DNA of 56,180 nt from Clostridia bacterium (GCA_046882085.1 JBKSNA010000027.1:1-56180); one strand, 5' to 3'. Shown: positions 38,618 to 53,204, counted from the stretch's first letter. Translations and numbers: made by a program. The notes: generated by a model from the sequence alone, not told the origin.

Positions 38618-38646
38618 TTGATAAAAAATCAATAGTGTGATAAAAT
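38618..38646 (+). promoter_or_regulatory. Extended -10 promoter for the 38682..53109 operon
   Basis: TTGATA (38618-38623), 17 nt spacer, TGaTAAAAT (hexamer 38641-38646). The AAGGGG ribosome-binding site lies at 38671-38676. Confidence 0.55.
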
Positions 38647-38681
38647 ATATAATAATATTATAAGACATAAAAGGGGTTAAG

Positions 38682-41600
38682 ATGTCTAAACTAAAGATTA
38701 AAAATTGGCACATATTTATTTTGGTAGCATTGTTATCAATGTTCTTGTTTGGCTGTGATAATGACGTGCCTGTAAATAGTATTTCATTCAATCTAGGAGA
38801 AGAATCGCAAATTGTAATGTTGGTAGATCAGGAATTGGATATGAATCAATTCGTAGATATCAGACCTGCTTATGCGACGAATAAGAATTATTCTATCACT
38901 TCTAGTGATGCTAGCGTGCTATCGGTTAATGGTAGTGTGATTACTGCGCATAAGGAAGGCGAGTGTGTGATCAGGTTGGTATCGAAAGAAAACTCTAAGA
39001 AAGAAGATATTATGACCATTAGAGTGAAAGAATCTATTGAAGTATTGGATACCCCAAGAAATCTTCAATTTGATACCACTCTTCAAGCATTCACTTTTGA
39101 AATGGTGGACAATGCATCAAACTACATCATTAATATTAACGGGGAAGATTATTCGGTGGGGAATAGCAACATCTTCCCAATATCAAAATATGTAGGGAAT
39201 TCACTTGATTGTGTAATGACTGCAAAGGTGAAGGCGGAGGCATCAAGATTTAGTTTCGCTTATCAGTCTTCACCGTACACTGAAATCCCATATCAGTATT
39301 ATCAAACTGCGCCTGTTACTAATATGTCTATCGTTGGTGGAAAGTTGAGCTTTGATAGTAATACTACAGCAAGTAATATTTTCATTAATGGCGAACTGTA
39401 TGAGCAAATTACAATAAATGAATTTTCATTAAAAGAGTTAGATGAAAAATATGCAGGTCAAAATGTGTTAATTGGTGTGCAGGCTGTAGTAGATCAGGAA
39501 ATTATTGATTCACTTGAAGACGGAGTGAAAGACTACAACTCTCTCAAGATAGAAAAAAATGTACAAGTATTAGATATAGTACGTCCAACTATGGTGTCGT
39601 CTACAGTTAGCTGGAATAATGTGATACATTCTGCTGGATACAAAGTGTATATTGACAATGTTAATATTGTGAATAATAAAGTGCTAGCTGAAGATATTGA
39701 TGAAAATAAAGGTGTCATTACAGCAAATTATTTCAACTTGGATAATTTAGAAAATATTGAAACGTTGATTAATAGTAATAAAATCTCAAACATTAAAGTA
39801 TTGCCGATCCTAAGGCAAGATAGTGAAAATCTAGCGATGACAGGTATTGTCGACAATATATCTGTGTCAAGATTGACCACTCCGGAGTTTTCGCTTGATG
39901 AAGAAGTAATTCATTGGAATAGCATTGATAGCGCTACTACTTATTTGTTGACTATCAAAACTGATGATCAACTTACTCAAGCAAACATTCGTGCGAATGA
40001 ATTTGACTTGTCTAATTTTGATGCGGGCGAACAAATTGAGATTGCTGTTAGTGCAAATTCTTCAGGCGAAGTGTCAGGTGTATATTATCTATATTCAAGT
40101 GAGAATTCTTGTACTATTACTAAGAATGAAGACGTAGATCCAGTCATTGAGAATTATGTATTGAAGTTCGGTGCGACAAGTGGAGAGAAATATAGAATTA
40201 ACTTTAGCGACAAAGATGGCGATATACAAATAGAGATCGATGAAGATTTAGATTTGTCGGAATATGTGTTTAATGCTGGTGTGAATGAGATTAGTATTTG
40301 CCACTTAGGTAATAAAGAAAATACTATCAATAGTGAAATTGCTAAAATATCATTTACTCAATTAGAGGCAATCAATGCTATATCAATGAACAATTCTACC
40401 GCAAGTGTGGTAAGATCTAATATTAATAAAAATGCGATAATTGAATTGCGTACTCAAATTGGTGGAACAATAAAGTCTATACAAGATACAATGTGGGAAT
40501 ACAACACAATAGATGCATCAGGCGAAAATTATTTACCGGCTGGAAGTTATGTAACATATGTGTATGTATTGGGTGATGGAGTGAATACTTTCTCTTATAG
40601 AGAAAAAGTAGGATCTAACCTAACAGAAGTGGCTACCGCAAGCATTAACTTTGAAGTGTTGAGTAATCCAAATTTTGATAATGTATTTGATAAGACAAAT
40701 AATAAAGTATCATTTAGTACAATAGAAAATGCTGACAATTATCAAATATATACTTTAGTAGAAGGCGTATATACTGCGACTGCTGCTATTACAGACAATG
40801 AATATCTCATAGCTCTAAATGCTGGGGAGACTAAGAATATTAAAGTACAAGCGGTGGGTAATGGTGTGGAATATCTAACATCTGTAATGTCTAGAGATAT
40901 CAATGTGAAGAAATTGCTTATCCCTACATTGGAGTACGATAATTCTATTGATGAATTTAGTATCGAAAATGAAGACTTGGATCATTCTACATATGAAATA
41001 GTACATAATGGAGATACTAAAGTTTTATCAGATATTTCGTTAGTTACAGGCGAGAATATAATAAGTATTACAGCGATAGCTAAAGATAGAGAAGGTGTTA
41101 ATTATTACATAAATTCTGCTACTAATAGCATAACAATCAATAAAATCGACGCTACTAGTGAAATCAAAGTAGAAAATAATTCACTTATTATTACACCTAA
41201 TCATACTGCGGGTTATGAAATAGTAGTAAAATACAGCTTTGGCGAGAGTGTTACTGCAGAATACAAGAATGGCAAATATACTATTCCGCTAGTGGATACG
41301 GATTATAATATCATCTATGACGAAATGAAGTCAGACTTTGGTGTAACTATTCAATATTTAGCACCGGCAGATGATGATTCTATCGCTACTAGTGATGAAT
41401 ATGCATATCCTAATACATTCGTATTAGAGCAATTATCAAAACCTGTATTAATAAGAGATGATCAAAATATTGTATTTGATAATGTGAATGAAGATTATAC
41501 TTTAAACAACTATAAGTTGATAATAGATGGAGAGAAATCCGCTATTAATTCATTCGCTACACTTGTGGATAATACAATCACAATTAGTGCTAAAAAATTA

Positions 41601-52233: not shown

Positions 52234-52263
52234 ATTATTATAGAAAATGTAAAGGAGGGGTAA

Positions 52264-53109
52264 ATGAAGAATGATTTTAATAAGGCGACCAAGACTGATA
52301 TGCCATTAGATGAAGTAAATACAACACGTTCTTCATCTACGCCTAAAAAAACAACTACAACAACGAAACCTAAGATTACCAAGATTGGTGGCGATACTAA
52401 GTCTAGTACTAAGAAGTCGTCAAGTGGTACTATCAAAACGACAACTACAAAAACAACTACAAAGACTACTATTACTAAAACGGTAACAAAAAGTCCGCCT
52501 AAAACAGTAGTAAAATCACCTGCCAAAAGTAAACTAAAAGATAATAGCATCAGTAATAAAGATCTAGAGAAAATGAATGAAGAGAAAGTTCAGTCTCATT
52601 CATTTAGAGGTACTAGAAATAGAGTGATTATAATCGCATTGTCGGTATTATTGATTATTTCGATTTTGGCTATTGTATTATATTCTCTCACATTAGAATC
52701 AGATGCGAATTGTTTCTTGTATCTAAATAAGAGTAGTGATATTAAGGCAACTTATATCATAAATAATGAAGAAATGACAGAGTTCCGAACGCCTAGCAAT
52801 TTCCGCGGAGGAACAATCTTCCAAGTAGATATTGATCTAAAGATTAGTAGTAGTGGTAGATATAAAATTTCTTATTATTTTGAGTGTTATGTGGCGGGGA
52901 ATTTGATGAAAAATGTGCTAGTATATCAGCCGAACTATGATTTATTCTATCCTGATACAAGTACTAATAGTTATTATACATTAAACCCTGTAAATGGAAA
53001 TCAGACAATAAGCTTAAGCGATGGTGTTGTGATAGATTCAGCATATGCTAATATGGTAGATCCTTATAATTTCACATTGAAGTTATATACTAAGATAGAA
53101 AAAATATAG
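52264..53109 (+). CDS. Single-pass membrane protein with a Thr/Lys-rich disordered N-terminus and an extracytoplasmic C-terminal domain
   Basis: Residues 20-95 are TTTTTKPKITK...TTTTKTTTKTTITKTVTKSPPKTVVKSPAKSK. A TM helix VIIIALSVLLIISILAIVLYSL follows, and then a 150-aa domain. It is the last gene before a weak hairpin plus T-run. Confidence 0.6.
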   Translation: MKNDFNKATKTDMPLDEVNTTRSSSTPKKTTTTTKPKITKIGGDTKSSTKKSSSGTIKTTTTKTTTKTTITKTVTKSPPKTVVKSPAKSKLKDNSISNKDLEKMNEEKVQSHSFRGTRNRVIIIALSVLLIISILAIVLYSLTLESDANCFLYLNKSSDIKATYIINNEEMTEFRTPSNFRGGTIFQVDIDLKISSSGRYKISYYFECYVAGNLMKNVLVYQPNYDLFYPDTSTNSYYTLNPVNGNQTISLSDGVVIDSAYANMVDPYNFTLKLYTKIEKI

Positions 53110-53204
53110 AGAGTAATCTCTGTATTTTTTTATATGCCCAGATATATTCTTTTACAACTTTATTATACATAGTAAAATTTGCATAACATATGTGAAAATA
53201 ATTA

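Follow-up and report, generated by a model that had tools for sequence, protein, structure and literature searches.

The DNA considered here, called the window in the following, is a stretch of 56,180 nucleotides (nt) from a Clostridia bacterium (GCA_046882085.1 JBKSNA010000027.1:1-56180). The nearest public sequences are metagenome-assembled genomes named Candidatus Onthoplasma (Christensenellales, Clostridia). Six co-directional open reading frames (ORFs) span positions 38682-53109 of its plus strand and combine a giant predicted lipoprotein with a signal peptidase and four smaller proteins, a cassette which may encode a remote relative of the TasA and BsaA fibre systems. The features of this locus are listed below (aa, amino acids).

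38618-38646, plus strand: candidate sigma-A-type promoter with an extended -10 element (TTGATA-17-TG-n-TAAAAT)
38682-47483, plus strand: 2933-aa giant, predicted to be a lipoprotein, whose gene opens the cassette
47512-48165, plus strand: signal peptidase of 217 aa of the endoplasmic reticulum (ER)/archaeal type (S26B, SipW-type)
48165-50885, plus strand: secreted protein of 906 aa, with a TasA-like head at residues 1 to ~165 (48165-48659)
50898-51623, plus strand: TasA/BsaA-like subunit of 241 aa, candidate major subunit
51634-52233, plus strand: 199-aa protein paralogous to the 241-aa subunit, candidate for a minor or adaptor role
52264-53109, plus strand: bitopic membrane protein of 281 aa, candidate uncleaved anchor, with the transmembrane helix and ectodomain at 52597-53106
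~53098-53131, plus strand: candidate intrinsic terminator, an AT-rich hairpin with a U-run which overlaps the stop codon of the last gene

The layout of the six genes and the gaps between them (28, -1, 12, 10, and 30 nt) were found exactly at the coordinates given in the original prediction. The ATG of the 906-aa ORF overlaps the TAA of the peptidase gene (TAATG), the mechanically called ORF opening at an upstream TTG at position 48102. Purine-rich Shine-Dalgarno-like sites with a GGAG core occur within about 15 nt 5' of all six start codons, the site of the 906-aa gene being a bare GGAG. The extended -10 promoter claimed for the operon is indeed present at 38618-38646 as TTGATA-17-TGTGATAAAAT, with 10 of 12 positions in agreement and the TG in place, in the AT-rich intergenic stretch of 306 nt that precedes the giant gene. 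Promoter-like matches across the region are, however, no more common than in shuffled sequences (92 as compared to 98.6 +/- 9.2), and this match is therefore a positional candidate only. Within the operon, the sole terminator-like site on the plus strand is a weak one at 48211 with a stem of 5 bp. At its end lies the hairpin at ~53098-53131, with a 15-bp stem and a GUAA loop followed by a U-rich stretch (z = -6.1 as compared to shuffled sequences, calculated for a stretch of 156 nt). This hairpin was missed by a consensus terminator scan because it has fewer than three G-C pairs. The next gene, sufC, starts 139 nt after the last gene of the operon. Judged from the sequence, it is reasonable to infer that the six genes are co-transcribed as one operon.

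The peptidase contains the boxes SDSEAP (with the serine), GDIITF, THR (with the histidine), and HGDA (with the aspartate), which are conserved in eight orthologues, those with the serine, histidine, and aspartate being invariant, and hydrophobic transmembrane helices at its N- and C-terminal ends which are conserved in these orthologues as well. Its best model in NCBIfam was the archaeal/ER-type TIGR02228 with 43.2 bits (E 3.7e-11), as compared to 18.1 bits for the bacterial-type TIGR02227, and its sole matches in the PDB were SEC11A and SEC11C, which are eukaryotic catalytic subunits. Alignment of the boxes with those of SEC11A (SDSEAP/SGSMEP, THR/VHR, HGDA/KGDN) predicts the protein to be of the Ser-His(-Asp) type rather than the Ser-Lys type. 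An orthologue in the distant locus L013 (30% identity, E 3e-26) reached 76.2 bits on TIGR02228, which passes the cut-off of this model, and 62.8 bits on the model of Bacillus SipW. With the Bacillus SipW equivalog NF046067 the window peptidase scored 23.5 bits, at least 190 being needed. Because of the ranking of TIGR02228, the SEC11 matches, the invariant boxes, and the L013 orthologue passing the cut-off, the enzyme is classified from its sequence as SipW-type (S26B), as had been predicted in preference to an ordinary signal peptidase, and not as an orthologue of Bacillus SipW. The SipW-type class of signal peptidases is native to the archaeal lineage. In all loci found, the gene for the SipW-type peptidase resides in the same operon as TasA-like genes.

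Relative to the orthologue from a distant cassette the window peptidase has an insertion of ~37 aa at residues ~120-157. In peptidases of the Onthoplasma type, ~37-60 residues are inserted after the GD box and before the last beta-strand, and this insertion is missing from SEC11 and from the 177-aa orthologues in distant cassettes.

In the 241-aa protein a signal anchor is followed by an invariant N-[IV]-T-Y-S-Y-F-T-A sequence and a predicted beta-sandwich, and the C-terminus carries the motif LG..I.I.FEA[IV]Q, which is present as IRITIRFEAIQ in the window and is conserved across the family. The family was assembled from 23 sequences, and a profile search of 1.84 billion representatives expanded it to 227 clusters at 50% identity. 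Residues M1, Y32, F33, G41, F52, R109, W111, D113, A114, N127, G129, F132, A198, Q200, D232, G235, and W240 are invariant. In the same sequence collection the profile linked the family by HMMER to a sister family at E-values from 1e-17 to 1e-9. AlphaFold (AF2) models showed a confident beta-sandwich for the 241-aa protein, with a predicted local distance difference test score (pLDDT) of 86.6 and residues 28-44 below 50, and again a confident beta-sandwich for a protein of the sister family (pLDDT 79.2), with low confidence at residues 32-41. The best conserved segment of the 241-aa family (T29, S31, Y32, F33, T34) directly follows the transmembrane helix, at the position of the donor strand in TasA, and this conserved segment is the sole long stretch of low confidence in both monomer models.

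Relationships among the proteins of the cassette were examined by local hhalign comparisons of alignments of the orthologues from the individual loci. The E-values refer to single comparisons, about 60 of which were run, and values of 1e-6 or below are unaffected because the comparisons number only about 60. The 199-aa family aligned with the 241-aa superfamily at 98.7% probability (E 3.9e-16, 178 columns), residues 1-165 of the 906-aa family at 91% (E 1.1e-6, 157 columns), and the last 170 residues of the 281-aa family at 93.2% (E 3e-7, 155 columns). The latter also aligned with the 199-aa family (92.0%) and with the head of the 906-aa protein (77%). In addition, the A12 hidden Markov model (HMM) matched the 199-aa protein at E 6e-8 among the ORFs of the window. 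Pairwise BLASTP among the 906-, 241-, and 199-aa proteins gave nothing significant save the N-terminal signal region of the 241- and 906-aa proteins (E 0.002), so that the kinship emerged solely from profiles of the orthologues. By profile comparison the locus thus holds four paralogous TasA-like modules, namely the 241- and 199-aa proteins, the first 165 aa of the 906-aa protein, and the transmembrane helix plus ectodomain of the 281-aa protein. Three TasA-like paralogues had been expected; the kinship of the 906-, 241-, and 199-aa proteins is real, and their number has to be raised to four. As to the 906-aa protein, the likeness is confined to its first ~165 residues. For the remaining ~740 aa (residues ~166-906) no relatives were detected in Pfam, NCBIfam, and the PDB, no internal repeats, and no match to a TasA-like module.

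The modules have a common order of motifs: signal anchor, T-x-[A/S]-x-F, Y-V-R-F-x-x-x-x-Y, G-Y-Y-Y, and LG..l.I.l.E..Q. In the 199-aa protein the signal anchor is followed by T-N-[AS]-W-F-T, and YVRFKFE, GYYYY, and LTIE.S are shared with the 241-aa protein. The signal peptide of the 906-aa protein carries a G-x-T-[FY]-A motif which is conserved in its family. The N-termini of these three proteins had been considered close to the class of signals recognised by SipW. Their motifs TYSYF, NAWF, and TFA are present and conserved within the families; the resemblance to the consensus GGTYAYF of the SipW-dependent-type signal peptide model TIGR04088 is, however, partial, and the model itself is not matched.

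The 281-aa protein had been described as a Thr/Lys-rich disordered membrane protein. This has to be corrected, since its transmembrane helix and ectodomain constitute the fourth paralogue (92-93% in hhalign). It consists of a cytoplasmic tail of ~115 aa rich in Thr, Lys, and Ser, one transmembrane helix, and an ectodomain of ~140 aa. It lacks the T-x-[A/S]-x-F cleavage motif after the transmembrane helix and has a conserved N-C there instead. As far as can be deduced from these features it is probably an uncleaved, membrane-anchored paralogue and a candidate for the anchor of a fibre. The tail (52264-52600) is of low complexity and contains the conserved short motifs MKK.YN..T.SDMP.D and KPKI..IG, and LEKLNEEN before the transmembrane helix, which suggest a cytoplasmic binding partner.

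A connection to the TasA/BsaA superfamily was obtained by way of the sister family. TIGR04088 was matched by 18 of 27 sister proteins (best E 6e-7), PF12389 weakly by 11 of the 27 (best E 1e-4, in the N-terminal part only), and the BsaA family TIGR04090 weakly by three. Relatives of the 241-aa protein reached at most 17-21 bits on TIGR04090 (E 0.004 to 2e-4). Downstream of cassettes of the sister type extra genes were found which encode a canonical SipW-cognate signal, FGGTYAYF[ST]A:

L013:12371-13192: gene with canonical signal
L014:13586-13999: gene with canonical signal, cut by the contig end
L015:6676-7392: gene with canonical signal

These canonical neighbours score 25-31 bits on TIGR04088. 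The one in L013 passes the gathering score of PF12389 (24.5 as compared to 22.5) as well as TIGR04088 (30.6) and touches TIGR04090. A window-wide HMM scan revealed no such extra gene in the window. In hhalign the sister family aligned with the canonical neighbours at 96.7% (E 3.6e-10, 168 columns), and the merged 241-aa superfamily aligned with them at 95.5%. From this chain of profile comparisons the 241-aa family is concluded to belong, as a remote branch, to the SipW-dependent TasA/BsaA superfamily, so that the kinship originally proposed holds by way of intermediate relatives. A word-indexed homologue search with the sister family returned 14 proteins, none of which was annotated.

Several results weigh against a SipW-dependent fibre system of the TasA/BsaA type. 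The last link of the chain, from the canonical neighbours to PF12389 and TIGR04090, is carried mainly by the signal peptide together with the 60-110 residues at the N-terminus. The score of the window peptidase on TIGR02228 stays below the curated cut-off (43.2 as compared to 51.85 bits). PF12389 (Peptidase_M73) gave no match at E <= 1 for the 906-, 241-, 199-, and 281-aa proteins, no protein of the window matched TIGR04088 (cut-off 19 bits) or TIGR04090 (cut-off 60 bits), and a scan of the window with a self-built HMM of the Bacillus TasA family yielded E-values above 1 throughout. Comparison of the 241-aa family with a TasA profile of 112 sequences by hhalign gave a probability of 3-11%. Foldseek searches of the PDB with both AF2 models yielded no match at E <= 0.001, TasA (5OF1, 8AUR) being outside the top 50, and the archaeal pilin AbpA (7UEG), at rank 6 for the sister-family model, was not significant (E 0.057, TM-score ~0.2). 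More generally, direct Pfam and NCBIfam searches with the giant and with the 906-, 241-, 199-, and 281-aa proteins were without result, and the PDB, searched by sequence with each protein singly as well as with the profiles of the 241-aa (A1) and sister (A2) families, yielded nothing relevant. Significant direct similarity to TasA or camelysin, which had been chosen beforehand as the test of the original prediction, was thus found neither by the HMM searches nor by Foldseek with the two models, and the link to TasA is therefore indirect.

What the direct comparison did provide were two short, collinear, and weak local matches between the 241-aa family and TasA (P 0.003-0.02), the TasA query being identical in sequence to PDB 8AUR. 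The first comprises the signal peptide and the following strand, the second aligns G..I.l.F.FEATQ of TasA with LG..I.I.FEA[IV]Q. The FEAxQ end motif therefore aligns, as had been claimed, with FSFEATQ of TasA, if weakly (P 0.004-0.014). The list of insignificant top Foldseek matches appeared by eye to be rich in adhesin domains and in subunits of fibres with donor-strand complementation (PsaA, MyfA, DraE/AfaE, CFA/I, AbpA 7UEG, a CLIPPER domain, RrgB, and cohesins). As all E-values exceeded 0.01 and TM-scores were 0.2-0.4, the make-up of this list is an impression and was not used as evidence.

The absence of a direct TasA fold or HMM match among the window proteins would also suit an explanation in which the four related proteins do not polymerise at all. 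They would then be surface proteins with a beta-sandwich, processed by SipW or still held by their signal anchors, and act as accessory, chaperone, or docking factors for the export or display of the giant, which would be the real product of the operon. The giant is the first gene, by far the largest, and always present, conservation of the signal anchors is unusually strong in the small proteins, and one of the paralogues, the 281-aa protein, clearly remains in the membrane. To be set against this are the conserved T-x-[A/S]-x-F at the exact position where SipW cuts TasA, with an ER-type peptidase encoded beside it, the conserved unpacked N-terminal segment and the C-terminal FEAxQ strand which are collinear with TasA, and the alignment of the sister family with canonical TasA-like proteins at 96.7%. 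A role of this kind is regarded as unlikely. The locus is read here, with moderate confidence, as one operon for a very divergent SipW-dependent TasA/BsaA-type fibre system of an uncultured spore-forming member of the Christensenellales (Candidatus Onthoplasma). Other ways of building surface fibres were considered and rejected: sortase pili, as neither LPXTG nor a sortase was found in the operon or the scanned ORFs of the window, and type IV pili, as a prepilin G↓F motif (↓, cleavage), PilD, and an ATPase were missing from the same ORFs. A metalloprotease function as implied by the name camelysin was rejected as well, since the label is called a misnomer in the literature (PMC11580942).

The cassette is found in about 11 metagenomic loci with the giant included, some of them distant and with other flanks. 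The order giant, peptidase, ~850-900, ~230-250, ~200-230, and ~240-285 aa is kept in about eight Onthoplasma-like loci, and in every one of these whose contig reaches that far the cassette is followed by sufC-sufB. The distant loci L013 and L014, which belong to the sister family, have the same six-gene order including the giant amid different flanking genes. In L015, also distant, the upstream part is cut by the contig, and a 199-aa gene is lacking. A chance juxtaposition of ORFs was rejected on account of the synteny over about 11 loci. Identities to the window orthologues are 32-62% for the peptidase, 31-47% for the 241-aa, 29-37% for the 199-aa, and 31-42% for the 281-aa protein; the giants in the same position in L002-L005, L007, and L009-L011 are 26-39% identical to that of the window. 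SufC and SufB reach 64-70%. The cassette proteins are thus much less conserved than SufC/SufB, which indicates that these surface genes evolve fast. No stretch of the 199-aa alignment was conserved enough to serve as a search query, and a scan of metagenome contigs returned one short locus.

The giant starts with MSKLKIKNWHIFILVALLSMFLFGC, a signal with a lipobox-like L-F-G-C. Its body is long and beta-rich with a few FN3-like W..I..A..Y signatures and weak GLUG-like motifs towards the C-terminus. It is essentially invisible to Pfam and the PDB, four orthologous giants gave sub-threshold Pfam matches only, and comparison of the giant with itself by BLAST uncovered no repeats at E <= 1e-3. To call it an adhesin is a guess, based on its size, the lipobox, the few FN3-like signatures, and the sub-threshold GLUG motifs. 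That a fibre decorates it, as first proposed, is likewise conjecture. The giant showed no sequence relationship to the TasA-like modules, and the peptidase gene is preceded by a 28-nt gap and its own Shine-Dalgarno site, as might be expected if the giant gene were merely adjacent and the functional unit consisted of the five genes from the peptidase on. A homologous giant is, however, located directly upstream in every locus long enough to show it, including the distant cassettes with other neighbours (L013 and L014, 22-30% identity to the window giant), and no terminator-like site separates the giant and peptidase genes. A mere neighbourhood is therefore considered highly unlikely. Because the six-gene order recurs in L013 and L014 despite their different flanks, the cassette with its giant is a conserved unit and no local accident, and the proposed coupling of the giant gene to the operon was supported by this survey of neighbourhoods.

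As the window also encodes gerA/B/C, spoIIE, and spoIIID, the organism is a spore former. One may ask whether, as the original prediction allowed, a fibre made by the cassette is part of the spore, in an outer layer or as an appendage, and not of vegetative cells or of a biofilm. The gene spoIIID lies 1.9 kb downstream of the cassette in all Onthoplasma-like loci with sufficient contig, and TasA was first described as associated with the spore coat (PMC9674648). On the other side, the sole promoter candidate is sigma-A-like, promoters for sporulation sigma factors not having been searched for, the distant cassettes occupy other, non-sporulation contexts, and a lipoprotein together with a bitopic membrane anchor indicates the producing cell's own membrane. 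An assignment to the spore appears very improbable.

For the favoured fibre system the following course of events is proposed, for which we infer the cleavage sites, donor-strand exchange, the roles of the subunits, the polarity of the fibre, and any adhesion. The dedicated peptidase would cut the signal peptides of the three secreted proteins just past T-x-[A/S], at GITFA↓N in the 906-aa, NITYS↓YF in the 241-aa, and GASNA↓WF in the 199-aa protein. This would free the conserved N-terminal segment, which could then enter a neighbour's beta-sandwich as its donor strand and so build up a non-covalent fibre in the way of TasA and BsaA. In TasA, SipW cuts T-W-A↓A-F, and residues 28-38 become the donor strand for the next subunit (PMC9674648). 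Residues 28-38 of BsaA form a disordered loop in monomer models and are inserted into the neighbour in multimer models (PMC11580942). A covalent lock of the BsaA type is unlikely in the 241-aa family because the N-E-K isopeptide triad is not conserved, neither Lys nor Glu being invariant and Asn being absent from the donor segment. Of the subunits, the 241-aa protein would probably be the main one, with the 199-aa protein in a minor or adaptor role. The 906-aa protein might join as a terminal (tip or initiator) subunit via its 165-aa TasA-like head, with the ~740 aa beyond it probably carrying binding domains. TapA, by comparison, is thought to supply the first strand for the TasA fibre (PMC9674648). 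The uncleaved 281-aa paralogue may root the fibre in the membrane, its disordered tail facing the cytoplasm, and the giant lipoprotein would be an obligatory partner, possibly a long surface fibril joined or organised by the fibre.

In its most far-reaching form this scheme yields a membrane-rooted heteropolymeric donor-strand fibre of a kind undescribed in Gram-positives, with the 281-aa protein as terminating and anchoring subunit which, through its conserved disordered tail, also provides coupling to a cytoplasmic component, the 906-aa protein as distal cap, and the giant as structural partner. This form is put forward as a tentative and rather doubtful possibility. If true, chaperone-usher and sortase pili, with their tip, rod, adaptor, and anchor, would have a TasA-type counterpart in a heteropolymer fibre confined to uncultured gut Christensenellales and invisible to current domain databases.

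The known system had been taken to be the three-gene tapA-sipW-tasA operon of B. subtilis, which is an outdated view. In the sipW-bsaABCRSD operon of Clostridium perfringens a SipW is encoded together with a secreted partner of 70 kDa and two remote TasA paralogues (PMC7395162). According to a 2025 preprint the TasA/BsaA family occurs widely and its sequences have diverged strongly. Genes for signal peptidases and for large surface proteins often accompany those of the family, and one operon can contain several paralogues, which suggests heteropolymers (PMC11580942). Like the cassette, sipW-bsaABCRSD occurs in Clostridia and joins a SipW-type peptidase with more than one remote TasA-like paralogue and a much larger secreted partner. 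Further likenesses to BsaA are the segment after the signal which is disordered in monomer models and proposed as donor strand, the weak TIGR04090 matches among the relatives of the 241-aa protein, and membrane anchoring without LPXTG, which is predicted here and has been reported for BsaA oligomers (PMC7395162, PMC11580942). The cassette differs by having neither a TIGR04090 match at cut-off nor the N-E-K triad, by lacking a vWA protein (BsaC) and a two-component system, and by the position of the peptidase gene, which is second here and first in C. perfringens. It adds the giant lipoprotein, the TasA-headed 906-aa protein, and the membrane-anchored paralogue with a cytoplasmic tail.

With tapA-sipW-tasA (PDB 8AUR, 5OF1; PMC9674648) the cassette shares a dedicated ER-type signal peptidase. 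The T-W-A↓A-F site of TasA has its counterparts in the predicted T-Y-S↓Y-F, N-A↓W-F, and T-F-A↓N sites, with the donor strand directly following, and the C-terminal strand motif FSFEATQ of TasA corresponds to I.FEAIQ. Like the 906-aa protein, TapA is an accessory subunit in which only the N-terminal part is shared. In contrast to these likenesses, no significant HMM, profile-profile, or Foldseek match connects the two systems. There are four paralogous modules here as opposed to TasA plus TapA, and a giant lipoprotein is co-encoded. Anchoring would be by a membrane-spanning paralogue, for which the 281-aa protein is the candidate, in place of the cell-wall association proposed for TapA. Archaeal bundling pili are reportedly homopolymers and are not known to involve a giant lipoprotein or a membrane-anchored paralogue. 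Their subunit (AbpA, 7UEG) is, like those predicted here, a TasA-like beta-sandwich with a donor strand. Chaperone-usher and sortase pili can serve as an analogy only, with their heteropolymer logic of tip, major, adaptor, and terminating or anchoring subunits. The former also rely on donor-strand complementation, the Foldseek matches to PsaA, MyfA, and DraE being insignificant. The cassette lacks an usher, a chaperone, a sortase, and LPXTG, occurs in a host of the Gram-positive type, and is evolutionarily unrelated to both.

New aspects of the cassette are a branch of the superfamily which is unrecognised by current domain libraries, the fixed six-gene architecture with its obligatory giant lipoprotein, the membrane-spanning paralogue with a cytoplasmic tail, and the large subunit headed by a TasA-like module. 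No new principle is involved, as there are published precedents for the type of peptidase, the type of subunit, and an operon with several paralogues. Biofilms of Bacillus and Clostridium have donor-strand fibres of the TasA/BsaA type as their main protein scaffold, and related fibres exist in archaea. The initiation, capping, and cell attachment of these fibres are incompletely understood, as regards the role of TapA for TasA and the mechanism of membrane anchoring for BsaA. The cassette offers a natural split of fibre roles into separate, recognisable paralogues, one of them membrane-spanning, and this membrane anchor together with the clean division of roles could render fibre initiation and anchoring testable. 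At least 227 clusters (50% identity) of this superfamily branch escape Pfam and NCBIfam annotation in common uncultured gut Clostridia.

Some further observations concern the surroundings of the cassette. It is followed by sufC-sufBD and then, on the minus strand, by spoIIID and a gene for a PP-loop ATPase, at 53249-54866 and 55012-56160, and this order of sufC-sufBD, spoIIID, and PP-loop gene is the same in the Onthoplasma-like loci long enough to show it. In L004 (15332-20696 onward) a second giant gene (4553 aa, exceeding the locus) begins about 3 kb past the cassette, after spoIIID and the PP-loop gene. Upstream of cysS, at 35768-36891 of the window, lie ORFs of 219 aa (plus strand) and 153 aa (minus strand) with no Pfam match at E <= 0.001. 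A very large ORF of 1520 aa at 82-4644, directly upstream of the gerA-gerB-gerC germination operon (4682-8448), shows a weak match to a transglutaminase core (24.7 bits, with a cut-off of 23 bits).

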